Shown here piece by piece: positions 1 to 12,672 of a DNA stretch of 12,672 nt (its first letter is position 1; each line of letters opens with the position of its first letter). Origin of the DNA: a virus; the UHGV virus genome UHGV-0126747; one strand, given 5' to 3'. The notes beneath the pieces were generated by a model that had not been told where the DNA came from, made no database searches, and was given only the letters and a program-made list of their open reading frames with translations. The position numbers and the translations under genes were made by a program.

Positions 1-442
1 CATAGCGAAGTCCTTTCTTTCCTACCAGCATGTTTACTGCATCGCGTAGCGGTGTTCTTTCCTCAACAGTGGTTTTCTTTCCTTTTACATACTCGCCATG
101 TTTGCGAATTGAAGGCAGAACTTCTGCTGTTACCCACTTGCGGAATTTGTGCGGGACTGAACCTTTATTGACTGCATCGCGGCAGCGCAGAACCAATGTA
201 TACATACCTGATTCGCTCACAATGCTTAGATTCTGCTCACCACCAAGGGTGTAACTTAAAGTTACTCCCTTTTCATCGTCATCAAGTGCAGTAAGCGCCT
301 TGCGTGAGTTAGTCAAATCTAAAGCATCACAAACATCTTTAGCTACAAACCACAGCTCACCGCACTTGTTGATGACGCGGATTTCACTGTCGCCGAATTT
401 GAAGATGGTGAAATCGTTTTGTGCCTTTGCTATACTTTTCAT
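1..442 (-). CDS. ant: Antirepressor Ant, N-terminal 147 codons; the gene continues past the left edge of the window
   Basis: Hand translation of the minus strand from ATG at 442-440 gives MKSIAKAQNDFTIFKFGDSEIRVINKCGELWFVAKDVCDALDL... with no stop down to position 2. AGGAAA Shine-Dalgarno lies 8 nt upstream. It sits directly downstream of arc, as in the P22 immI operon. It is absent from the ORF track because it has no in-window stop. Confidence 0.8.
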   Translation of the reverse strand, partial: MKSIAKAQNDFTIFKFGDSEIRVINKCGELWFVAKDVCDALDLTNSRKALTALDDDEKGVTLSYTLGGEQNLSIVSESGMYTLVLRCRDAVNKGSVPHKFRKWVTAEVLPSIRKHGEYVKGKKTTVEERTPLRDAVNMLVGKKGLRY

Positions 443-510
443 GTCAATATTTCCTAATCCGATTTGTTGATGCCGAAGCCCTGACTGTTACAGCAGTTGG
501 GGCTTCAACT
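443..510 (+). ncRNA. sar: Candidate sar-like antisense RNA, complementary to the ant ribosome-binding site and the arc-ant intercistronic region
   Basis: Plus-strand extended -10 TGcTATACT at 428-436 would start transcription near 443, antisense to the ant SD and start codon. A hairpin (stem 475-481 with 500-506) followed by a short T run at 510-512 sits about 68 nt downstream. P22 is known to make a 68-69 nt sar RNA in this position. No strong -35 is seen and the 3' U-tract is weak. Confidence 0.4.
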
Positions 511-672
511 TTACGCACCAATGCGCCCTTCCTTCTTAAAGCTTTCCATTACTCGCTGATAAATCTCAGAATTAACAGACCGACCATTTTCTTCCGCCAC
601 CTTGCGTACCAAATCCAATACTTCTTTAGGCCACCGCAAATTGAACTGTGGCATTTTGCTCATTCCTTTCAT
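511..672 (-). CDS. arc: Arc repressor (ribbon-helix-helix), 53 aa
   Basis: Internal ATG of the 74-aa track ORF gives MKGMSKMPQFNLRWPKEVLDLVRKVAEENGRSVNSEIYQRVMESFKKEGRIGA, which I recognise as P22 Arc with at most one or two substitutions. GAGGTG Shine-Dalgarno lies just upstream. The part of the track ORF upstream of this ATG overlaps the operators and is not coding. Confidence 0.9.
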   Translation of the reverse strand: MKGMSKMPQFNLRWPKEVLDLVRKVAEENGRSVNSEIYQRVMESFKKEGRIGA

Positions 673-686
673 GTTCACCTCACAAT

Positions 687-707
687 ATAGGTCCACGGTG
701 GACCTAT
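687..707. promoter_or_regulatory. Mnt operator, a perfect 21-bp palindrome ATAGGTCCACGGTGGACCTAT
   Basis: The palindrome is read directly from the sequence and matches the P22 Mnt operator as I recall it. It overlaps the predicted Pant transcription start. Confidence 0.85.
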
Positions 708-740
708 TGAGAATATAGTAGAGTGCTTCTATCATGTCAA
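704..740 (-). promoter_or_regulatory. Pant promoter: -35 TTGACA (735-740), 17-bp spacer, -10 TATATT (712-717) on the minus strand; start predicted near 704-706
   Basis: Consensus -35 and near-consensus -10 with ideal spacing, read from the reverse complement. The Arc operator fills the spacer and the Mnt operator covers the start site, which is the known P22 arrangement. Confidence 0.75.
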
Positions 741-743
741 TAC
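707..743 (+). promoter_or_regulatory. Pmnt promoter: -35 TTGAGA (707-712), 17-bp spacer, -10 TATCAT (730-735); divergent from and overlapping Pant
   Basis: Sigma70-like hexamers with 17-bp spacing about 28 nt upstream of the mnt start. Its -35 overlaps the Pant -10 and its -10 overlaps the Pant -35, giving face-to-face promoters. Confidence 0.55.
715..735. promoter_or_regulatory. Arc operator (plus strand ATAGTAGAGTGCTTCTATCAT, reverse complement ATGATAGAAGCACTCTACTAT)
   Basis: Read directly; matches the 21-bp P22 arc operator from memory. Located between the -35 and -10 of Pant. Confidence 0.85.
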
Positions 744-762
744 ACTAACTTGGAGTGATGGC

Positions 763-1017
763 ATGGCTAGAGATGATCCGCACTTTAACTTCCGTATGCC
801 TTTGGAAGTAAGAGAAAAATTGAAATTAAGAGCCGAGGCTAACGGAAGGTCAATGAACTCTGAGTTATTACAAATCGTTCAGGATGCACTATCAAAACCA
901 TCACCGATTACAGGATATCGCGACGAAGCTGAACGCTTGGCTGATCAGCAGGCTGAGCAGTTCAAGGCTATAGTGTTTGAGACACTTAAAAAGATTTATG
1001 AAAAGGATTTGAAATGA
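763..1017 (+). CDS. mnt: Mnt repressor (maintenance of lysogeny; represses Pant)
   Basis: Track ORF MARDDPHFNFRMPLEVREKLKLRAEANGRSMNSELLQIVQDALSKPSPITGYR... is recognisably P22 Mnt (RHH N-terminal domain, divergent C-terminal tail). GGAG Shine-Dalgarno at 752-755, 7 nt before the ATG. Confidence 0.9.
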   Translation: MARDDPHFNFRMPLEVREKLKLRAEANGRSMNSELLQIVQDALSKPSPITGYRDEAERLADQQAEQFKAIVFETLKKIYEKDLK

Positions 1018-1349
1018 GATTTCTATCACTGTTCTTGTTAGCAGTTGTCTCTTCTTCCAGTGCTGAGCTGCGCGAGCTTCAAACGGGTAATGACCTTCTT
1101 TACAACATTCAACAAGGTAAAAAGGGTGATGATTTTTCATCGCTTTACATTACTGGATATTTGCGCGGAGTAACTGACTCATTGATACTAATTGGTTCTC
1201 TATGTCCTCCTGATGGCGTTGACATGTATCAATACACCGATATCGTTGAGAAATATCTAAACAAAAACCCAGAATCAAGAAATGAGAGTGCAGTTATACT
1301 AACCGCCCTAGCAGTAGGAAAAACATTTCCGTGCAAAAAGAATCAATAA
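1014..1349 (+). CDS. Hypothetical small secreted protein (111 aa) with N-terminal signal peptide; moron, possible lysogenic-conversion or superinfection-exclusion function
   Basis: Start ATG overlaps the mnt stop (ATGA at 1014-1017), indicating translational coupling. N-terminus MRFLSLFLLAVVSSSSA is a typical Sec signal peptide without a lipobox. Two Cys residues in the mature part. The DNA is visibly more AT-rich than the flanking phage genes. Confidence 0.6.
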   Translation: MRFLSLFLLAVVSSSSAELRELQTGNDLLYNIQQGKKGDDFSSLYITGYLRGVTDSLILIGSLCPPDGVDMYQYTDIVEKYLNKNPESRNESAVILTALAVGKTFPCKKNQ

Positions 1350-1364
1350 CAATAAGGGCTTAAA

Positions 1365-1754
1365 ATGAAATTGATTATAGCAATGGCTTTCCTTGTCTTC
1401 TCTTTTTCTGTCTCAGCAGAGTGCTGGGTCGTTGGAGATATGCACGGAATAAGCTATTCAGAACGAAATAATTTTCAACCGGAAGAAGATGGTTTTAGTG
1501 GAACATTCATCATTAAGACAAACGGTGAAGATGCCAGTATCACATATTCTGGGACGGATGCGGGCGGCATGGCTTACAAAGCATTGTCTAAAAACTCCAT
1601 CATTGGAATCGGCGCGAATGGCGAAACTCAACGAGTTATCGACTCATGGGTAATACATCCTAATGGAACAGTTTTAATGTCGAAAACCATTTCTGGTTAT
1701 GGGAATATGGATTCAACCAAAGCTTTTGTTGGAAAAGTAAAAAGAAAATGTTAA
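1365..1754 (+). CDS. Hypothetical small secreted protein (129 aa) with N-terminal signal peptide; Gly/Ser/Thr-rich, likely beta-rich fold
   Basis: AAGGG Shine-Dalgarno about 7 nt upstream of the ATG, 15 nt after the previous stop. Signal peptide MKLIIAMAFLVFSFSVSA. Cys immediately after the predicted cleavage site and Cys as the last residue. AT-rich like the preceding ORF. Confidence 0.6.
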   Translation: MKLIIAMAFLVFSFSVSAECWVVGDMHGISYSERNNFQPEEDGFSGTFIIKTNGEDASITYSGTDAGGMAYKALSKNSIIGIGANGETQRVIDSWVIHPNGTVLMSKTISGYGNMDSTKAFVGKVKRKC

Positions 1755-1778
1755 CGATTGAATCCAATTCCCCATACG

Positions 1779-3617
1779 TTACTGCTGTGTTGCCTCAGTA
1801 GCAAGCAGCGGCCTGATGGCATTTGCAGCGTTACTCAACGCTCTTTCATAGGCTGGCGTTCCAGCTTTAGTGTTTGCCAGACGTAAGAGAGCATTCCTTG
1901 CTGCTTTGGACTCATACAAACGCATCATTGCACCAAAGCCAGCCTCAAGCCCCATTGATACACCAAGAGTCGCAGTTGCGCCAATCGTCCTTATCCTGTT
2001 GGCTTGTGATTGCCCCGTCTGAGTTACTACATTTGCGGTGTCTGACCTTGCTGTTTGCTGTAGAACTTCATGAAGAGCATCAAGCTCTTTCATGTGCTTT
2101 CCAGAAAAAATAGTGTTGTAAATTTCACCGCCTGACTGAGATTTCAGCTTATTAACTTCAGTGATGAACTTGGCTGGAGAGTCACCGGCCTTTTCCGCTA
2201 TTTTGCTGACGTAAGCTGCACGCATAGCATCTTTCCCTTTATCATCCATGGCGCTCCATATTCGTTTCACGTCAGATGGTTTTCTGCTTAATACAACGGT
2301 ATTTATAAGTTCAGGACTGGCTTCACTGCTTGCCTTGTTGAGCTTGTTAGCAATGTTTTTATTAAGCACCTTATTATAAACGTTTGCATAATCGGAATTT
2401 GCTTTAAGGTATTTTGCTGCGTCTGATGCACCGAGGTTTTTAGCAACTGCGTTACGAAGGTCTTTTGACATTGCATTCTCTACCATATTGGTAGCTGCTT
2501 TTGCCTGGTTGGGGAAGACCATAGCATCTCCCTGAACATTAGATCTAAATGCTGTTCTGTGCTGACGCAAGAGATCAAACGTAACATCCAAATCAGTTGC
2601 AGGGTTTGCTAATTCTTCACGTAGGTTACGCAAGGATGTAAGCAGGCTTTGATTGGCAGACGTCCCAAGCCGTTCCTGTCTTGCGATCGCTGTATTCAGA
2701 GCATTCATGGTATTTGTGGTATCAACTGCGGCATTACCCATTTTATTGGTGACGTCATTGATAACAGCGCCAGCGGCATCCTTCCGCCCCCTTAACGTGG
2801 TGGTAAGAGATTTCACCACATCATCAGGGTTGTACTCACCAAAACGGTCAAAATAATTACTTACCAGCTTACTACGCGTTGCATATTGCTCCGCTCGCTT
2901 TGAGCCTGTCCCGAGCAAAGCCCCCTCGGCATCCTGAGTTAGGCCGCGAGTGAAAGCATTTTTCGGCGGGATAACATCAGATGTCATTGGTGTCACGCCC
3001 ATCGATTCTGATGTGGCAATTTTCTTCGCCACTTCTGGCGCAATATCACCTTTTATAGCCGTTATTCCACGCCCTATTCCCTTTGCTGCTGCGGAAAGAA
3101 CACCCTGAGTGGCAAGGTTAACTCCGGCATTTTTAGCTGCATTTTGTGCGAAATCGCCTTTCTGATTTGCGGCCTCTGCCAGTGATCCAATAGCCATGCT
3201 TCCTGCCGTTCCAACTCCTGGAACTAAATACCCACCAATTGTTTCACCGGCTTGCGCGTAGGGGTCTGTCGGTCTGTCTACTGGACGATAAACATCATCC
3301 AAAACCTTGGGTCCACCAAGCCCCTGACTGATTGCATTAATCAGACTTGCGCCGCCCTGCAATACGTCAAATGGTATGTTTACCAGACCACGACCAGCCT
3401 GTTCTGCAATTTGCCCTGCACTTTGACCACCAGTGAGCCAATCGCCAGCTTGTTGCATCAATGATGATTCTTCCCGTGTTGGTGCATTATTGGCCTGATT
3501 AACTGTTTGTTGCTGAACAGCCTGACCAGCAAAATACTCATCAATGGCGGTGCCAATATCTTCGGTGCTCGTACCATCAGGAAAGGTAAATGTCTTACCG
3601 TTTGCAGTTACTTTCAT
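1779..3617 (-). CDS. Ejection (DNA-transfer) protein, gp16-like by position and size; 612 aa from the second of two tandem ATGs
   Basis: Long open frame ending 24 bp from the convergent plus-strand cassette. The start overlaps the upstream stop in ATGATGA, with GGTGG upstream better spaced for the second ATG. Ala/Gln/Asn/Gly-rich composition typical of podovirus ejection proteins. It is the last late-operon gene before the immunity region, as gene 16 (609 aa as I recall) is in P22. The product call is by synteny and size, not by recognised sequence. Confidence 0.7.
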
Positions 3618-5203
3618 CATTCCACCGTAAATTGAATGCCTGATTTTGAGGTATATGATCCAACCTGATTCCGTGGTTCTCCTGAAGGTGTCGAATCTTG
3701 TGCTGGCGCTGCGTCAGTATTCATTGACATATACCGCTTAACGGCACTCCCCAATGATTCACCTTTTTTAACATCCAACCCCAATATCTGACCGCCATTA
3801 CGCGATTGTCCAGGGTTGCCATTCGCGCTCATCCACTCGGCTTTAAACTCATTAAACTGCGCGTTTCGTCGCTCAAGGTTTGCCATTGCATCAAGCCATC
3901 TTGCGACCGTCTCAGGGTTATCCATGTCAGTTGGCGCACCCTGTCGAACGATCTCAACGTCTTTATCCGTTGCTGGGCCGGGAGGTAGGAATTTAAGAAC
4001 CTGACTGTTAACAAGGGCATTTTGGCGAATGCGCAAATCACGCAATGTTGTATCGCTTCCGGTAAGTTTTGCGAACATGTTCTGTGCGTTACCGAACAAA
4101 CCTGTCGTTGGTTTTTCTGCTCTGAACTGTTGAGCAAGCGCACTCATAGAATTGGCTGAGTTTGATGATGCTGTAGCATTGTTTACAGCCGTCTCGATGC
4201 CTTTTTCCATGTTTACTGACAGCTTAGGTGCTTCGCTAATCAACTGCTGAGCCTTTTCCTGCGCTTGCTGCATCTTAAACCCGAACTCTTGCTGATCCAG
4301 AGCCAAGCGTTGTGCTGCGATATTGTGCCCAGTCATTGCTGACTGATAGGAAAGGTTTTGCCCTCTCGCCTGAAGTGCTTCACCAGCCTGATTGCTGCGG
4401 ATTGTCTCTGCCAGCCTGCCTCGGTCAATTTCACGACCAGCCATATTATCCTGAACAGCAAACGCCTTTTCTGGTCCAAGCGCACCGAGAGACATAGTAG
4501 TCAGCATGTGTGATAGCTGCTCTGGATTCTGGATAACATACAAAGCGGCACCAACGGTGGTTGCACCTGTCAGGGAAAAATATTCAATCGTCGATGAACC
4601 AAAGCAGACGATAAAGTCTCGCCATGTACCTATGCCGATGATGCCGTCAGGCTGCGATTCTGCACGATATTGTGCGCTGTAGCGGTCAGGGTGCGATTCG
4701 TCTTCAAGGTCAGTGATAAACCATGAATCCGTGCCGTCTTTTGACCACGCATAACGCCCACGTAAACGCGTAATGTCGCGAACCGAACCTAACTCATACT
4801 GAGTGAATCCGCTGTCTGTAGGCCAGTTTGAGACTGTTTTAACCGTTCCATCATAGCGATACTCGACCAGTTGACCATTAACGCCTACCGCCTGAGATGT
4901 TCGACCATGCGCCATTGATACGCGACCACTTCCGGCAACATCACCGACCTCGCTTTCGCCCTTATACAACTTGCCACCGCAAACGCGATAAACAGCATTC
5001 TGCGCCATGTTGTACTCGACACCGCGCGATACACCATTCACATCAGAGCGTTTGGCAATGCCAGGGAATGAGCGAAGATATCCACTGCTGTTGAGGATTT
5101 CTTTGGGGGTTGCCAGCATATTCACTGGCAGATAGTCGATATAGTCAGCGTTTCTAAAGTCTTTGCCGACACCTTTCATAAGCGGAAGTTGCTGAATCGG
5201 CAT
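3617..5203 (-). CDS. Chimeric 528-aa protein: first ~220 residues resemble the N-terminal part of P22 gp10 (tail accessory factor); the remaining ~300 residues are unrelated to gp10, possibly the C-terminal part of an ejection protein (gp20-like)
   Basis: Start ATG overlaps the gp4 stop (TAATG). N-terminus [46 protein letters not shown]... matches my recollection of P22 gp10 up to about ...[14 protein letters not shown], then diverges into a Gln/Ala-rich sequence. The stop overlaps the start of the next ORF. Confidence 0.8.
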
Positions 5204-5680
5204 TATTCGCTCCCGTTATCGCAAGGTTCCTTTCGCTGGAAGTAATTCCAGCCGTTCCACTTCGCCAACTGGTTACCACTACCAACAGGCATACGGTTTG
5301 GATAACCGGACTTACATTTAGCGGCTTTTGCTCTGTCCATTGCAGACAGTTTGACGAGTCTCTCTTTCCCGTATCTGGCAGTGGTTATAAGTTTTGCAGA
5401 CGCTTCCAGCGCATAATCCGGAGCAATGCGGCAGGCAAGGTTGAAAATGACGGCATTGATAGCGTTATTTGATAAACCGTGCTCATCGCCCGGATCTGGA
5501 GCGACATCTGCATCAGCGAAAATGTAGCCAACGTTGATACCAGGTGACACATCACCGCCAAGCCATTCAGCCATCATCATTTCAAGGTCGTTGACGCCGT
5601 CTTCCATAGACTGCGGTTCGACATCGGTTAACGTGGCATTTGATGCCACACCGAGCTTACGTAATGCCGCAAGAACTAAA

Positions 5681-5703
<23 letters not shown>
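5203..5703 (-). CDS. 4: Tail accessory factor gp4-like (portal-binding, peptidoglycan-hydrolase family), 166 aa
   Basis: From the internal ATG at 5703: [47 protein letters not shown]... parallels P22 gp4 ([33 protein letters not shown]...) and gives the same length I recall for gp4. The longer 204-aa track ORF is an upstream extension through the repeat and was not taken as the start. Confidence 0.8.
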
Positions 5704-5953
<250 letters not shown>

Positions 5954-5965
5954 GCTTGTCTCCAG

Positions 5966-5989
5966 ATAAAAAAGGGAGCCGAAGCTCCC
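5966..5989 (-). terminator. Rho-independent terminator just downstream of the coat gene: stem GGGAGC/GCUCCC, UUCG tetraloop, U6 tract
   Basis: Minus-strand reading of 5989-5966 is GGGAGCTTCGGCTCCCTTTTTTAT: a 6-bp GC-rich stem with a UUCG loop followed by six T, starting 9 nt after the coat stop codon. Confidence 0.8.
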
Positions 5990-5997
5990 TCTGGTTA

Positions 5998-7293
5998 TCA
6001 CGCAGTCTGGTTAGGCAGACCAACACCAATTGCCTCTGGTCGTACAGCACATGCTGAATACCACACAGCAATACGGCACTTACCAGACAGAGTGTTGATA
6101 TCACCCTGCGTTGCGAAGATGCCGTTAACACCAATACCTGGAATGCTGAAGGAAGAAGTTTTCATGCCAGCAAACAGTTCATGGGTTACCGGAATCGGCT
6201 GAGACAGCAGGCGGATTGAGTCATCAGCCCAGAACACGTTAGCGGTGGTTGTTGCCACGTTCAGAACGTTTACCGGAGTGGTATTAGCAAGAGAGGTGTT
6301 TACGTTAGCGTAAGCCTTCTCTTCTTTTGTCAGTGACGCGTCATCCAGCGCAATCGGCTTCGGCGTGATTTCGATGTGAGTACTATCGATCACTCGGGTG
6401 ATTGAGAAAGTCGCATCATCAGTCAGCACGTTCTTCGCCATCTGAGACAGGAATTTCACACCAGTGAAGCTGATTTTGTCGCCGCGCTTAAATCCGGTGG
6501 TGGAGGATACGGTCACCGTTGCAACACGGTTGTCGACGTTCTCCTTGTTACCATCGGTATCAATGGTGTATGCCTGCGGCTTAAACTTCTGCGCTCCAGA
6601 CACAGTTACACCAGTAGCGGTTGACTTGGTAACTGCCGGAAGTTTCGGTGAGCGAAGAATTTCATCAAAGCCAGCAATCTGACGCTGAATAGTACCGTTG
6701 CGATACGCTTCTTCAGGAACGCGACCGAAGATGTCACCATCTACCAGGTTGCGGCCTGCTTTGCGGTAATCGTCAGGATTCAGGAAGTAACTGATGCCCA
6801 TATCGCGGTTTAGCTCACGGGAGAACATCAGTCGCTCTGCATCAGACACAAAATCCCATCCAGACAGGCCAGTAGATGGACCAATTGCGCGGGTATCGTG
6901 AACAACAAGCGAGCCCATTTCAGTTGCCTGTTTGGCAATTGCTGACTCAATGTTATTCGCCAGTTTTTTGGCGGATGCCTGGATGCGGCGACGGTAAGAA
7001 CGCTCATCACGCAGGTCATCTGCACGAAGCTCGAAGAAATCGTTATCCGGATCGCCCATGTTGCATTTCACGGAGAGTTCCAGAATCCCGGTTGCGTTGT
7101 CAGTTAAATCCCAGCCAGTCTGGGTTGGCGCTTCCTGCTCAACAGGCATCCACACGGTGTTGCTTGAACGCTGCATTGATTCTGCCGGAGGGGTGTATTT
7201 TGTCACTTTGGACGCCATTGGCGTCAGGTTCTGGACGGTTTCGATGATTTCATCCAGAGCATATGTGACCAGTTGACCTTCATTTAATGCCAT
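5998..7293 (-). CDS. 5: Major coat (capsid) protein, HK97 fold, P22 gp5-like, 431 aa
   Basis: MALNEGQ.VT.A.DEIIET... with full-length resemblance to P22 coat protein as I recall it. The start overlaps the scaffold stop (ATAATG). Confidence 0.95.
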
Positions 7294-8204
7294 TATCGAA
7301 TTCCTTTATTCAGTTGCGCCTTAAGCTTGCGGTACGTCTCTACATCCCCTTTGTTTGCTGCCGCTTCCATCTGCTTTTCAATCGCAGAGATATTTGCAGC
7401 AACAGCGTGTCCCTGAATGGGTTCATCAGGTAACGGGGCTTCTGAAACAGGCTTTGCTCGAGGCTTGAGAGTTAAACGTTCTGACAGTCGAGTGAGTTCA
7501 ATCAGCGCGGATTGCCCGTCCATCGCCAGCAACTGGCGTGTTTTCTCAGGATTAGCACCAAGGTGATACATGAGAGCAGCGGATTTCTCCGGGAAGAGGC
7601 GCATGATGTCGGCACCGACTGCTGGCGGCACCAGTTGCATGAATGCATCCTCTTTCTCCTGATAGTCAGGGATATTGAGCTTTTCCGCTGCGTCGTAGTG
7701 CTTACGGGCTGCCTCGACGTATTGCGCTGATTGCTGGGTGAACTCCTGAGTTTTGCGACCCTGCTCGGCGACAGCCTGGCTTCGTGCGTCCATAGCCTTG
7801 ATCTGCCATTCACTGTTTGCCTGCTGGAAGGCAGCCAGTGCGCGGCTCTGGTCATAGTCGTACTTAGCCAGTGCATCTTCGGAAAGATAATCGTTAGGGT
7901 CTGGTTGTTTCGGTAACTCAGGGTTCACCCGCAGGTGCTCCGGCAATTCTCCACGCTTAACCGCTTCCATCTGCTGCTCAAGCTCACGCTGGCGTTTGCG
8001 TTCGATGCGGCGACGGGCAAATTCAGCATTAGTTGCCGGGTCTTGTTTTGGTTTCTCATCGTCTTTCAGGACAATCTCGAAGCCTTCTTCCTGACCTGTG
8101 TTATCGTTGGCATTATCGACAACTAAGCCATCAGCAGATGCCGCTGCATGATTGCCGGACATGGTTAATTCTTCAGAAGCCTGAATGTCGGTGGTTTGGT
8201 CCAT
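7293..8204 (-). CDS. 8: Scaffolding protein, P22 gp8-like, 303 aa
   Basis: Same length as P22 gp8. Charged, helical sequence with the conserved C-terminal coat-binding region ...[17 protein letters not shown]. Located between portal and coat. Confidence 0.95.
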
Positions 8205-8217
8205 GATTAACTCTCTC

Positions 8218-10383
8218 TTATTGAGGTGTCTCGGCTACTCCGCCGGAGGGGATTTGAACTTGACGCATAAGATTCGCGAAATCCATGCGTTGTGAATGAG
8301 TCTGGTCTGCATCTTTAAGAAGCAGCTCAGCGTTAGCGCGAGCATCTTTGCTGCGCTGTTGCTGGAATTGACCTACGAGCTTGAGGTACTCACGCAGTTC
8401 TGCCTGCTTGTCGAGGTCCATATTGTTGAAGATTTCTGCAATCTTCGCGGCGTTGAGTTGGTTTTGGGCTTCAACCTTGGCAGCTTCAACCTGAATCTGC
8501 GCCTGTTGGTTCTCTGCCTTGAGCAATTCAGCCTGACCTTGCAGAAGGATGCCCTGCGCCTGAATTTGCTCTGCTGATGGCTGCTGCGGCTGTTGTTGTG
8601 CCTGCTGCACCATCTCCATCTCTTCAGGTGTTTCTGGTTTCTTCAGCCCCATCATCACCAGTTGCTTGTTCGCGTACTCTCGCATCATCTCGACGCCTTT
8701 ACCGTCAAGCAGCGTGAAGTATTGCAGCATCAGCATCTGGAACTCTGGAGTACCTTGCGGAACCTTGGTGAGTAACTCCTGAATCTCTGCGCGGTTCTGT
8801 TCCTTCATGCTCTGGAAGGATGGTCCAACTCCTATATAGCACTCGTAGCGACCGCGAATGTCGTTGAGTGTGACCACATTACCGGACTGGTAATCGACAA
8901 CTTGCGCGTAGAGTTGAACGTCTTTCTCGCTTCCATCTTCAAGTGTCAGCGTTACATGACGAGGGATGTCATAAATATCATTGACCATTGAGGCATAAAT
9001 CTCGCCATCACGCCGCATTGCGGTAGCCAGGTTATCCTGAAACACGTATGTCTCAAGGTCTGACCGCATGTTCAGTTGATTGACGGTATCGAAAGAGACC
9101 TGAGAGTTTGCTGCCTGTGCATCCACGCCAAGACTAGCCACCTCTTTCACTGCGTTGGTGGCAGCCTCAAGCATGTAAGCGTTGGCTTGCGGCACTTCAG
9201 GGTTTTCCATGTAGGAGATTGGACCAATCGGCAGGTCGTTACCGTTTTCATCAGTCCTGTTCTGGAGATAGTACGGATAGTCATCATTTCCACCGTACAT
9301 GTATTCGTAGCCTTCGATTTGCTCAGGGAAGAAGGTCGGTTTCTTCTTCGGTGAACGACCAACAATATCGGCGTTGAATGACATGATCATGTTACGAAGG
9401 CGTTGACCGTCTTTCGTCAGCCTTACCACTCCTTCGTAGCACTCCTTGTCACCAGCGAATGACCATTCGCCATACACTGGAACGATTGGAATATGCTCTC
9501 CTGCTATCTTCTCGCGGTCTTTCAGTATCTGCGTGCAGGTGATGATCGACTTATACACACGCCGACGCTTCACCTTGCGCTCTGCTACCTTAATGAATCC
9601 ACGATTAGCCAGGTCGTCGATGACGTCTTTAATATCCTGCTGGTAATAGCTGACCGGCTCACCTGTCAGCGGGTCGCGGTAGATGAAGACTTTCTCCTTC
9701 TTCTCTTCTACCTCGTAATACTCAGCGACGTAGACGACATCATTCGATACCCACGGAAACAGCCATGTGTCGTTCGGATTCTGGAAAGATGGCAAGGTGT
9801 CCGGATCAATACCGTAATCCTCTGCGAACTCTTTCCAGCCATTGCGTGACAAGGCGTTAATCACCGTGCAGTGCTTAGCGTCGCTCTTATCCATCTGCTT
9901 GCTGTTGGCGTCCCATATGACGTGTGAGCAGGCCTCATGGATTGGCAGGCGTCTGATTACCTGATTGTTGCTTGTTGGGTCGTTGTCTTCGTACTGTGTG
10001 ACCAGACGCCATGCACCAACGCCGGACTCTATCTGCTCACGAACGCCAACGTTAACGGCAATCTTTGCCGTGTTATGGCGCATATCAGTACGATACATCC
10101 CCATCAACACATCGGCTGCATCAGGATTAGCGCCGTCTTTGGGTCGGAAGAGAACGTCGATAGGGTTCCGGCGCATCTCTGCGACCAGTTTCCTGACCAC
10201 TGGGCGAACAACATCGAATTGTCCGCGATATTGCAGGGTGGTGTAGTTTGATAGCCAGTCATCCCATTGCGACACTCGGCTAAAAAACAGGTCATTTGTC
10301 GCCTCGGTTCTGGCTTCATCGCTCGCCATCCAGTCTGCGTCAAACTTACACAGAATGGAATTGAGTCTGTTTTCGTCGGCCAT
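8218..10383 (-). CDS. 1: Portal protein, P22 gp1-like, 721 aa
   Basis: [38 protein letters not shown]... and a long Gln-rich C-terminal helical barrel region, as in the P22 portal. The start abuts the terL stop (TAAATG). Confidence 0.95.
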
Positions 10384-11883
10384 TTAAGTTCTCCGTGCGA
10401 TGGGCCTGATTGGGGCTGGTATCTTTTTCTCTTTTGGTTTTTTGATGTCGCGCATCATTTTGGCGAAGCGGCGCATCATGTATGCATAGCGAACGGCTGA
10501 GAGAACGTCGTCGTTAAGCTTGACGATCTTCCCGTTTTCATCACGGTGATAGAGGCGGAACTCCTCAAAGAATGGCTCACAGGTGTTGAATACTTTGAAG
10601 CGACCATCGAGCATCATGTCGCGCAATTCAGTGATGCCAGGCTCAACAGCATTACCGCCATCAGGCCATGTCGCATGCTCCTGCAACATCATAAAACCAG
10701 CATCTGCATACTGCCCTTTGAGCTGCTCACCGCCGCCCTTCTCATGCTGGTTTCCGTCATGAGGCCATGCTGTTGGCACTTTATGCGCCCATGATTTAAC
10801 AGCTCCCCATGCCTGAACGGCTGTTTTTTCTTTCGCCTTCCACACGCGTGAAACGTAGATTGTGTCTGCGTCCTTATCCCACCAAAGCTGAACCTGCGCC
10901 TGCGGGTGATCCCATCCGAAATCCATCCCGCCAATTACGTAGAAGTGATCAGGGCACTCAAACGGCTGACACTTAATCGTCTCTTCCGGTATCTGGAAGA
11001 TTCGCCCGCTACCCATCGTAGGAATACCGCGAGCACGCGCCTCTCTCTCATGCTCAGGATAGGATGCGATGATTTGCTCTTTCTGCTCGTCGGTGTAGTG
11101 CTCAGCGTCATAGATGGTCATGTTGACCACTTTCTGCGACTTGCTGGGATTCTTCAGGAACTTGGTAACAACGTCAGACATCCCCATCAGCGGGGTAAAC
11201 GTCAGAATTGAGAATTGCCCGTATTTGTTGGTACGGGTAAGCCCTTCGCCATAAATGCTGTATGGTGGCTCTTCATCAAACCACACGCCGTGGATTGTGT
11301 CACCCTGCCAGCGAGCACGGCCTTGCGAGTATGGTTTGAAGTAGCAGATTGAAATGCCATCTTCAACGCCATCAGCCGTGTGATGCTTAACCAGAAGATG
11401 ATCAACAAGGTTCGGAAAGAAAGGAGACTTCTTCCAGCTAATGATGTCCTCTTTCGGTATGGAACCGTAGCCTGGCTCACCATTCTCTTCGATACGACCG
11501 CACAGGATGCGTTGAGTCGTTTTGGTTACCGTCTCGTTTGTCTCGCCACCAATCCAGAAGACAACAGGCTCATAGAAACGCTTACCTTTCCACTCCCCAC
11601 CATATTTACCATCAGCAGGATAGCCTTTTGTGCCCGGATAACGCCCTGTAAGGTGAAACGCGACTTCAGCAGCACCAGTAAATGACTTACCAAGCTGGTT
11701 ACCAGCCATAAAACAGCGCTCTGGATAGTCATGCCCGGCGTCGATGAACTCACGCTGTTTGCTGTATGGCGTAAATTCATATAGCAGGTGTGTGTTCCGG
11801 TAGTTCTCTTCTTCTTCGAGTAGCTCGAGCAATTCGATTTGCTCTTCGTCGCTCAGGTTATCAAGAATCGCGTCCAGTTCCAC
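10384..11883 (-). CDS. 2: Terminase large subunit (ATPase and nuclease), P22 gp2-like, 499 aa
   Basis: [37 protein letters not shown]... recognised as P22 gp2, with the same length. Walker A-like NQLGKSF. Overlaps the terS 3' end by 23 nt. Confidence 0.95.
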
Positions 11884-12349
11884 GGTTGAATAGCTCCTTG
11901 ATACGAGAGCGTCGCTTATCGCGATCTCCCTTATCAGGTGTCACGTCTTCAACTTGCGACTGCTCTTTGAGGCCCAAATCACGGGCGATGATGTTAGCGT
12001 TGAGAAGGTCAGCGGCTGCGCCAGAGAATTTCTGGTCGTAGATGATGTCTTCCGCTCGTGATGTGACGTCAGAAAAACCTTCCATTGACCGGAAGGTTCC
12101 CCATGTTTGCCTGGTGATATCAAGGAAGGTACACAATCCTGAAATAGTCATGGCTCGCATCTTAGGGACATTAGCCTTAATTATTTCTCCCTGATATGAA
12201 AATACCTTACCCTCCCATAGCGGGTTATCATCAGCCCACTCGAAGTATTCACAACAAGCTGCCCACAGCGCCTCAGGCGATTCGAATTTAGGATTTCGCC
12301 CATGACTACTGCGGGCCTCCCAAAATCGGTTGCCCTTTGGTGCTGCCAT
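11861..12349 (-). CDS. 3: Terminase small subunit, P22 gp3-like, 162 aa from the second ATG
   Basis: [38 protein letters not shown]... matches the P22 gp3 N-terminus, and C-terminus ...[23 protein letters not shown]. The track ORF begins two codons earlier (MNM) but that ATG has no spaced Shine-Dalgarno. Confidence 0.9.
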
Positions 12350-12384
12350 ATTCATCTCACTTAATCGTTATTTCAGGTTGAGCA

Positions 12385-12627
12385 TCATGCTCCGGTGGTG
12401 AACAGGTCTAACGCCTCCTTCGATTTACGCACCGCTTCGATTGTGCGGGTCGTGATATCTGAATTAGCGCCACCTGACTGGAAGTGAATTTTGAATAGCT
12501 CAAGCTTCAGCTCGTCAGTGCCAATGAACTGAAATGCTTCTTCTGCGGCTGCGTTCTGGTTCATGACCAGTTTGTAAATCTCTAACTGGAATTTCTGTTC
12601 TTCAGTCATGGGAATAATCTCTGCCAT
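12385..12627 (-). CDS. Small hypothetical protein (80 aa) immediately upstream of the small terminase gene; occupies the position of P22 orf80
   Basis: GGAG with a 6-nt spacer before the ATG at 12627. Acidic helical sequence MAEIIPMTEEQKFQLEIYKLVMNQ... The same length and position as the unnamed ORF I recall upstream of gene 3 in P22. Confidence 0.55.
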   Translation of the reverse strand: MAEIIPMTEEQKFQLEIYKLVMNQNAAAEEAFQFIGTDELKLELFKIHFQSGGANSDITTRTIEAVRKSKEALDLFTTGA

Positions 12628-12672
12628 TGTTGGCTCCGTTTATCCGTTAAAAGGGATATCAGTTAAGTTATC

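Follow-up and report, generated by a model that had tools for sequence, protein, structure and literature searches.

An inherited gene 10-to-gene 20 deletion scar beside head genes of a second type in a P22-like sequence

In P22-like phages (Lederbergvirus), the late operon has the order 3-2-1-8-5-4-10-26-14-7-20-16, as in P22, HZ41, IME10, APC_JM3.2, N7 and Bas106. The virus sequence UHGV-0126747 (12,672 nucleotides; the whole stretch is hereafter called the window) has the gene order and orientation of this operon, with 96–100% nucleotide identity from terS until 668 nt into gene 10 and 98–99% over gene 16 and the final two thirds of gene 20. Unlike the operon, however, it is without genes 26, 14 and 7 as well as the 3' half of gene 10 and the 5' third of gene 20, and the two stumps are fused into one open reading frame (ORF). 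How did this arrangement arise, and do the scar and the head genes next to it belong to one element? An earlier note, made from the sequence alone, had proposed an in-frame deletion in a defective prophage able to build and fill heads, with an undescribed natural tail module or an assembly artefact as alternatives.

On the minus strand, the window carries in order terS, terL, portal, scaffold, coat, a 90-aa ORF, gp4, a 528-aa ORF and gp16. The genes terS (11861–12355), terL (10384–11883), portal (8218–10383), scaffold (7293–8204) and coat (5998–7293) are intact, have the ORF lengths of their relatives and show 100% nucleotide identity to L016, an intact prophage of GCA_024768325.1 with the normal order 4-10-26-14-7-20-16. 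Between coat and gp4, the 90-aa ORF (5681–5953, minus strand) contains the repeat (GCCAGA)9, encoding (EP)n, at 5751–5808 (Tandem Repeats Finder); its copy number in the counterparts of relatives ranges from 0 to 20. The exact 90-aa protein occurs on at least 24 contigs, each time flanked by coat and gp4, and all relatives read that have an identical portal or an identical 90-aa ORF are intact prophages ordered 4-10-26-14-7-20-16. The gene for gp4 (166 aa; 5203–5703, minus strand; PF11650, E = 2.8e-58) is intact and its product is 98.8% identical to gp4 of prophage L019 over the full length. The 528-aa ORF (3617–5203, minus strand) follows, coupled to gp4 by TAATG, in which the gp4 stop TAA and the start ATG have one base in common. 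Its TGA stop is overlapped by the start of gp16 in ATGATGA. The gp16 ejection protein (1779–3620, minus strand) is intact, with a length of 613 aa, or 612 aa if the second ATG is used, and is 98.2% identical to residues 1–612 of L019 gp16; PF26808 is recorded for a gene of another locus (L006) that is identical to it. This layout agrees with the earlier note, which had placed a single 528-aa ORF between gp4 and gp16.

Comparison with known proteins confirmed that the 528-aa ORF consists of gp10 residues 1–223 fused in frame to gp20 residues 167–471. Residues 1–225 of the fusion are 97.8–98.7% identical to gp10 residues 1–225 (BLASTP and TBLASTN), and residues 224–528 are 99.3% identical to gp20 residues 167–471 of prophage L019 (BLASTP), in keeping with the earlier note, to which the first ~220 residues looked like gp10 and the rest did not. 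At the nucleotide level, the gene-10-derived 5' part (4536–5203, minus strand) comprises gp10 codons 1–222 and the first two bases of codon 223, while the gene-20-derived 3' part (3617–4535, minus strand) comprises the third base of gp20 codon 166, residues 167–471 and the stop, and is 98.7% identical to gene 20 of phage N7. The hybrid codon at the junction, GT/T, still encodes Val223. The Pfam domains of both parents are cut at this point: PF11134 (Phage_stabilise) covers fusion residues 4–226 with only profile positions 1–223 of 469, and PF16928 (Inj_translocase) covers residues 223–285 with only positions 155–217 of 218. Likewise, the P22 gp10 tail hub (PF11134; PDB 8tvr, 8u10, 7sg7) aligns to residues 1–226 (E = 1e-145 to 1e-150), the alignments of chains 8tvr_S and 7sg7_T being restricted to these residues, whereas its C-terminal 246 residues are replaced by gp20 sequence. 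The fusion contains neither the full PF11134 domain (~469 positions, in a 472-aa hub protein) nor a complete N-terminal PF16928 domain together with the gp20 C-terminal region. The N-terminal part of gp20 serves its incorporation into procapsids (PMC8402733). The fusion protein has neither this part nor the C-terminal half of gp10, the hub, and is most likely a by-product without function.

The missing sequences were not found elsewhere in the window. In six-frame TBLASTN searches of the window, neither gp14 nor the gp26 needle, represented by two types (233 aa and 317 aa), gave anything better than E = 0.1, as anticipated from the sequence for the needle. For gp7 and for gp20 residues 1–166 there were zero matches in the window up to a limit of E = 10, and the C-terminal half of gp10 had no significant match there, only residues 1–225 being matched. 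Genes 26, 14 and 7 lie between gene 10 and gene 20 in all relatives read. They may be present elsewhere in the same genome.

The junction, mapped against five relatives, is blunt and lies at 4535/4536: all parental alignments either end at 4535 or begin at 4536, with zero overlap. In phage HZ41, window position 4535 corresponds to 38526 and 4536 to 34856, so that 3,669 bp, or 1,223 codons, are absent from the window. Base-by-base comparison, with HZ41 as the stand-in parent, revealed no microhomology or repeats at the deletion endpoints. This confirms a single in-frame deletion of ~3.7 kb that reaches from codon 223 of gene 10 to codon 166 of gene 20; the earlier note had estimated an interval ~3 kb too short and endpoints near 4500–4540. 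The in-frame outcome has a prior chance of one in three and is therefore no evidence of selection. Likewise, the 13 synonymous differences in the gp10 part of the fusion reflect past selection on phage gp10, not on the fusion.

The same base-exact junction is present in independent assemblies, including a finished genome. At least 21 other contigs, drawn from isolates, metagenomes and SRA assemblies, encode a protein identical to the fusion, and three more encode a 528-aa variant of it. Among 5,426 complete E. coli genomes, 1,444 have one or both of the junction-region halves, always apart except in a single fused case: the finished chromosome of 20AR0300, which is 99.8% identical to the window across 4336–4735. 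The deletion scar is an inherited, real allele, and these occurrences dispose of the suggestion that the fusion itself is an assembly artefact. All 24 carrier contigs that were read (24/24) hold a decayed remnant at argW from which the head genes are gone up to dsdX; in each of them the scar-bearing element lies between argW/intS and the dsd genes, and none of the 24 has a full-length scar-bearing prophage. One provirus in IMG/VR has the junction; it is of the remnant type and ends at the start codon of the fusion. The 36-mer spanning the junction is absent from GTDB species representatives and from JGI metagenomes, and no phage record carries the junction. Among the contigs examined, no other assembly has a full gp4 adjoining the fusion, and this arrangement is known from a single sequence, the window.

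The two sides of the window have different closest relatives. Positions 1–4729, which include the 5' part of ant, arc, mnt, a Rap1a-like ORF, a 129-aa ORF, gp16 and most of the fusion, are 100% identical to the argW remnant of 20AR0300. Over 1–5309 the window and this remnant are 99.68% identical, with zero mismatches in the first 4,729 nt and all 17 mismatches within 4730–5305; the alignment stops at 5309, where the remnant runs on into dsdX. Positions 4730–12672, with the 5' end of gene 10, gp4, the 90-aa ORF, the genes from coat to terS and a DUF2560 ORF, are of the L016 type: 5751–12672 is 100.000% identical to L016 over 6,922 nt and, repeat copy number aside, 4730–5808 differs from it only at 5147 and 5155. 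At informative sites, the window has the remnant allele in 12/12 cases between 4565 and 4707 and the L016 allele in 12/12 cases between 4730 and 5116. The switch from remnant type to L016 type is thus confined to 4708–4729, and the same allele switch is seen against ten further loci of the L016 family (L027–L031 and L033–L037). It is abrupt and falls in a region homologous in both parents, a 774-bp segment (4536–5309, minus strand) composed of the 5' part of gene 10 and the last 106 nt of gene 4. This segment is the only high-identity homology remaining between the argW remnant and intact P22-like phages; the remnant and MS14385 are 96.0% identical over the 774 bp and at most about 94% in other, shorter shared stretches.

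Neither the window's nor the remnant's 774-bp haplotype was found in an intact phage among the 5,426 complete genomes, the best matches being 98.2% for the former and 96.4% for the latter, so sequence alone cannot tell which of the two is the recombinant. The scar and the head genes probably do not have one common history. The deletion proposed in the earlier note stands, then, while its single self-contained defective prophage, building and filling heads, finds no support in that form: the window is a hybrid at 4708–4729, in which the scar-side block matches a remnant without head genes and the head genes are of the intact type. Within the L016-type block, a patch of two sites (5147–5155) has the remnant allele, which could stem from heteroduplex repair or from a parent on the right-hand side that was slightly unlike L016. 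A simple single crossover with L016 itself leaves this patch unexplained.

We consider it probable that two separate events were involved, namely a deletion in an argW prophage and a later recombination with a second P22-like genome. It is unlikely that the second joint is instead an assembly chimera, in which the sample contained the argW remnant as well as an independent intact prophage of L016 type, or else two metagenomic strains, and the assembler passed from one to the other via the 774-bp near-repeat; the fusion gene would then be real, but not its position beside gp4, coat and terminase. A mis-join requires a switch within the shared 774 bp, and this is where it lies; none of the other contigs examined has the arrangement, several carriers of the fusion are metagenome assemblies, and the patch at 5147–5155 could be consensus noise from mixed reads. 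However, the switch took place in only 22 identical bases (4708–4729), although an identical stretch of 164 bp (4884–5047) was available, and it is there that one would expect graph assemblers to cross at k of 55 or more. The allele blocks, moreover, are long and clean (12, 12, 2, and then 5 or more sites) and not a random mixture.

Quite improbable is the view that the window represents a self-contained, full-length prophage with the 10-to-20 deletion that was the direct ancestor of the truncated remnants. Such an element would have made and filled heads from which the DNA leaked out without hub or needle; in the absence of gp26, packaging is normal and the DNA then falls back out of the unplugged capsid (PMC3741392). 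The late genes present are all intact, and the remnant matches the window without a difference at the junction and over the 4.7 kb to the left of it, as for ancestor and descendant. Yet the differences in 4730–5305 would have to be ascribed to later gene conversion in one lineage, or to replacement of the right arm by a double crossover, which is one recombination event more than a single-crossover model needs. Homology extends over at least 8 kb, and the boundary of that event must also have fallen, by chance, within the 774 bp of it that the remnant still has. Full-length scar-bearing prophages are lacking among the 24 carriers, and the 100% identity of the right arm to a circulating intact phage points to a very recent origin. 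A natural tail and ejection module, with a single 528-aa protein in place of gp10, gp26, gp14, gp7 and gp20, can be given virtually no credence. Its ORF is intact and in frame, with translational coupling to its neighbors, but the two halves, which meet at a base-exact break, are 98–99% identical to ordinary parts of gp10 and gp20, and the Pfam domains are cut mid-profile. The absence of the junction from phage records, the carriers being remnants without head genes, and the separation of its halves in all but one of the complete E. coli genomes that carry them also speak against such a module.

Under the preferred two-event reading, a P22-like prophage of E. coli at argW first underwent one illegitimate, microhomology-free deletion of 3,669 bp, in which it lost genes 26, 14 and 7 entirely, the 3' half of gene 10 and codons 1–166 of gene 20. 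The product was in frame by chance and kept its translational coupling to gp4 on the upstream side and to gp16 on the downstream side. The scar was then inherited unchanged and, in the carriers read, the prophage from gp4 onwards was later lost up to dsdX. In the second event, another P22-like genome, of a type represented by L016 and MS14385, appears to have recombined with a scar-bearing copy, by a crossover at 4708–4729 within the 774 bp of gene 10/gene 4 homology. A complete modern head and packaging module would thereby have come to lie beside the old scar. A crossover inside the 774 bp is required if the truncated remnant was the partner, and is otherwise one of many possible sites. Among the genes of the L016-type phage are those for an anti-RecBCD protein and a Rad52-family recombinase; recombinases of this class reportedly promote exchanges of temperate phages with defective prophages (PMC3945230).

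The most economical topology would be a single crossover by which a circular intact phage genome was inserted into the remnant. In that case, an intact 10-26-14-7-20 segment would lie one phage length further on, adjoining dsdX, and the prophage as a whole would not be structurally defective. An exchange within one chromosome, between an L016-type prophage at sbcB/dacD and the remnant at argW, was considered and put aside: judging from the two records and the K-12 map, these elements are probably in the same orientation, so that the exchange would be expected to delete ~380 kb unless it came about as a tandem duplication. That an intact P22-like phage became a lysogen independently of att, by a single homologous crossover into the 774-bp remnant stump at argW, is a tentative and somewhat doubtful proposal. 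If it held, direct gene 10/gene 4 repeats would bracket the prophage, and homologous recombination would be its only way out. Pac site and terminase would face the host DNA beyond the fusion, gp16, intS and argW, and adjacent host genes could be packaged in situ (lateral transduction). The truncated gp10::gp20 protein would be expressed on induction and might compete with the normal hub.

Apart from its joining to the head genes of a second phage, the scar is ordinary prophage decay, and neither the deletion, the decay series nor the hybrid challenges current understanding. The live P22-like phage Kapi1 integrates at argW between yfdC and dsdC, in a hypervariable region rich in prophage genes (PMC8787464). 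The scar-bearing element resembles Kapi1 in lying at argW next to the dsd genes. In having two deletions of its own, 10-to-20 and gp4-to-dsdX, the remnant differs from CPS-53/KpLE1 of K-12, a decayed prophage at the variable argW–dsdCXA island. Together, these deletions provide a clean, datable decay series at the argW–dsd hot spot, in which an internal deletion was followed by loss of the whole left arm into dsdX. The window also offers a base-resolved example of recombination between a remnant and a modern phage via less than 1 kb of homology. It resembles the relaxed homologous recombination between phages and defective prophages described by De Paepe et al. (2014, PMC3945230) in its short ~96% homology, in the joining of a remnant to an intact lambdoid or P22-like genome, and in an intact partner type with a Rad52-family recombinase. 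In that study, however, the phage gains remnant DNA and stays a phage, whereas here the product is known from chromosomal sequence alone.

Exact-protein searches with ORF versions of 106 aa and 204 aa matched nothing on record. In RefSeq, the fusion protein (WP_327744661.1) bears the name "packaged DNA stabilization protein", a label for what is really half gp10 and half gp20. With terminase, portal, coat, gp4, "gp10" and gp16 in a row, prophage callers would score such a region as intact, although it is without the needle plug and two ejection proteins.

Between 1779 and 12627, every long ORF is encoded on the minus strand, and together these ORFs make up a P22-like (Lederbergvirus) late operon: a DUF2560 ORF (12385-12627), terS (11861-12355), terL (10384-11883), portal (8218-10383), scaffold (7293-8204), coat (5998-7293), a 90-aa ORF (5681-5953) containing a hexanucleotide repeat, gp4 (5203-5703), a 528-aa ORF (3617-5203) and gp16 (1779-3620). 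Left of gp16, mnt, a Rap1a-family ORF and a 129-aa ORF are on the plus strand, and arc and the 5' part of ant are on the minus strand. A megablast search of 50,697 phage records returned many close relatives (HZ41, IME10, APC_JM3.2, Bas106) and no record covering 80% of the window; a whole set of phage alignments stopped at exactly 4536.

Window positions 4109-4535 align to 38952-38526 of phage HZ41 at 99% identity, and 4536-12672 to 34856-26744 at 97.2%. Therefore, 3,669 bp (1,223 codons) are missing relative to HZ41 at 4535|4536, which refines the in-frame deletion of about 3 kb, from gene 10 to gene 20, proposed in the earlier note. In the coordinates of phage N7, the last gene 10 base kept is the second of codon 223 and the first gene 20 base kept is the third of codon 166. 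The hybrid codon, GT|T, still encodes valine; thus the protein is gp10(1-223)::gp20(167-471), with 223 + 305 = 528 residues. When the junction was aligned to the two parental sites of HZ41, no base at the joint was common to both, and the BLAST alignments all abut at 4535/4536 with zero overlap. The deletion was thus illegitimate and microhomology-free. Translational coupling is kept on both sides, through the overlaps of the fusion with gp4 (TAATG) and gp16 (ATGATGA). The in-frame result was not counted as a sign of selection, since its prior probability is one in three.

Both domains of the fusion are broken in mid-profile. In Pfam, PF11134 (gp10, "Phage_stabilise") matches residues 4-226 with profile positions 1-223 of 469 only, and PF16928 (gp20, "Inj_translocase") matches residues 223-285 with positions 155-217 of 218 only. 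The BLASTP comparison of the split protein, suggested earlier, assigned the front to gp10 (residues 1-225 against gp10 1-225, 97.8-98.7% identity) and the rear to gp20 (residues 224-528 against 167-471 of gp20 from an intact reference prophage, L019, 99.3%). The solved gp10 structures 8tvr, 8u10 and 7sg7 align to residues 1-226 only. In a six-frame TBLASTN search of the window, two needle types (233 and 317 aa), gp14 and the C-terminal half of gp10 gave no match better than E = 0.1, and gp7 and the first 166 residues of gp20 gave zero matches. Together, Pfam, BLASTP and TBLASTN bear out a single 528-aa ORF after gp4, with no gp26, gp14 or gp7 in the window. In RefSeq, the fusion (WP_327744661.1; 12618-14204 of the E. 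coli 20AR0300 locus) is named "packaged DNA stabilization protein", as though it were a normal gp10. At 90% clustering it groups with partial gp20 proteins, including some Salmonella records labelled "acyltransferase".

Next, we determined where else this joint occurs. One or both halves of a 400-bp junction probe were present in 1,444 of 5,426 complete E. coli genomes; they were joined in one, 20AR0300, at 99.8% identity. The exact 528-aa protein was found on at least 21 contigs of the protein collection, and three more carry a variant of the same length; in the contig index the protein is listed in 47 blocks. The 24 carrier contigs read were drawn from assemblies of isolates, of gut metagenomes and of SRA data, and all had the order evgS-evgA-emrKY-dsdA-dsdX' | fusion-gp16-ORF129-Rap1a-mnt-arc-ant-tailspike-ORF105-intS-(argW)-yfdC-mlaA. 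Since the same joint recurs in the same neighbourhood across independent contigs, the scar is a genuine allele and has been inherited. An assembly artefact was thereby rejected as the source of the fusion, given its joined state in 20AR0300 and the shared neighbourhood in 24/24 contigs. A natural new tail module was rejected as well: the halves are joined in 1/5,426 genomes, and all 24 carrier contigs read hold the scar in a remnant. All contigs read that carry the window's exact portal or exact 90-aa ORF had the canonical order 4-10-26-14-7-20-16, with sizes of 166, 472, 233-317, 151, 230-233 and 431-471 aa for 4, 10, 26, 14, 7 and 20.

The home of the scar is a prophage remnant, deleted twice, at the argW-dsd locus, which PMC8787464 describes as hypervariable and at which the P22-like phage Kapi1 integrates. 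The annotation of 20AR0300 has a gp4 fragment of 38 codons fused to a 5'-truncated dsdX. In this remnant (L003, 14204-15397), and likewise in every other carrier read (L006-L015 among them), a second deletion has left gp4 with its final 38 codons, joined to a 5'-truncated dsdX, and none of these contigs has dsdC. Thus, D-serine uptake and catabolism are probably not inducible in these strains.

The P22-like tail body consists of gp4 and gp10, with the channel plugged by the gp26 N-terminus; without this plug, DNA is packaged and then falls back out (PMC3741392). DNA delivery needs gp7, gp16 and gp20, and the N-terminal portion of gp20 mediates incorporation into procapsids (PMC8402733). Of gp10 the fusion retains no more than the first 47%, and the N-terminal part of gp20 is missing from it, so a role as hub or as ejection protein is hardly to be expected. 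The remnant copies are probably silent, since the upstream late operon is lost there and the truncated dsdX is divergently oriented. In the window, a full late operon once more precedes the fusion, and induction would be expected to yield the protein, which might conceivably, as a speculation, compete for gp4 with the normal gp10.

The window is a hybrid. Against the 20AR0300 remnant it aligns over 1-5309 with 17 mismatches, all in 4730-5305 and none in 1-4729; against the intact prophage L016 (GCA_024768325.1), the 6,922 nt of 5751-12672 are 100.000% identical, and the window differs at 12 sites in 4565-4707 and also at 5147 and 5155. We scored informative sites in the 774 bp (4536-5309) common to all three. 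The window has the remnant allele at 12 sites in 4565-4707, the L016 allele at 12 sites in 4730-5116, the remnant allele at 5147 and 5155, and the L016 allele at five sites in 5198-5305; ten more L016-family loci (nine plus the finished genome MS14385) gave the same pattern. This switch points to homologous exchange, and its position puts the crossover at 4708-4729, some 175-195 nt away from the deletion joint. Within the fusion ORF, window and remnant differ at 13 sites, all of them synonymous, and both encode the identical protein; the pattern fits two gp10 alleles whose divergence, under purifying selection, took place in functional phages before they came to these elements. Because the joint is base-identical and the 4.7 kb left of it do not differ in sequence between window and remnants, the deletion took place once. 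The in-frame deletion of the earlier note stands, but its conclusion of one defective, head-filling prophage is not secured, because the scar and the head genes probably have separate histories.

Since the right side of the window is L016-type and the scar side remnant-type, a second event would be needed, after the deletion, to join scar-bearing DNA to an L016-type genome. We favour a single crossover by which a circular, intact phage genome would have inserted into the remnant. The two share about 96% identity only in the 774-bp stretch, within which the crossover lies; their other common stretches (tailspike/ant, arc/mnt and a short piece by intS) reach at most about 94%. If the truncated remnant was the partner, this crossover site is obligatory, whereas it is merely one possibility if both partners were full-length. 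Double-crossover replacement, or the self-contained ancestor of the earlier note followed by gene conversion, would each require one extra event. Alternatively, an assembly mis-join through the 774-bp near-repeat could have placed the scar beside the head genes, and the fusion with a full head-gene arrangement was indeed seen in the window alone among the contigs examined; however, the switch falls in a 22-base identical stretch although one of 164 bases was on offer. No intact phage among the 5,426 genomes has either 774-bp haplotype, the window's or the remnant's, so that, on the sequences alone, either lineage may be the recombinant.

If single-crossover insertion is true, intact genes 10-26-14-7-20 are predicted one phage length beyond the right end of the window, and structurally the element as a whole would not be defective. 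In E. coli MS14385, the L016-type phage is present as a complete prophage (L037), located at sbcB/dacD, with a cluster of Rad52-family recombinase, SSB and anti-RecBCD genes (42264-43788); PMC3945230 reports that recombinases of this class promote exchanges of temperate phages with defective prophages. The case as a whole is ordinary prophage decay and ordinary phage-remnant recombination, and is not surprising; its use is as an annotation warning and a neat worked example.

The MS14385 prophage also has tRNA-Thr and tRNA-Asn genes upstream of the holin (30310-30465). The hexanucleotide repeat of the 90-aa ORF is perfect, reads (GCCAGA)9 in coding orientation, lies at 5751-5808 and encodes (EP)n; it varies from 0 to 20 copies across 26 related loci, and copy number (9 versus 20) is the sole difference between 5751-12672 and L016. 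Read in another frame, the repeat gives an (SQ)n N-terminal extension to a mechanical 204-aa "gp4" ORF, which is probably spurious. Between mnt and gene 16, two small plus-strand ORFs with signal peptides (1014-1349 and 1365-1754) occupy the interval that holds a SieA-family gene in L019 and two other loci (L020, L021). The 129-aa product had zero Pfam matches and the 111-aa product matched PF18602 (Rap1a, a type VI secretion immunity family; E = 9.7e-15); the two may be a moron pair that accounts for retention of the remnant.
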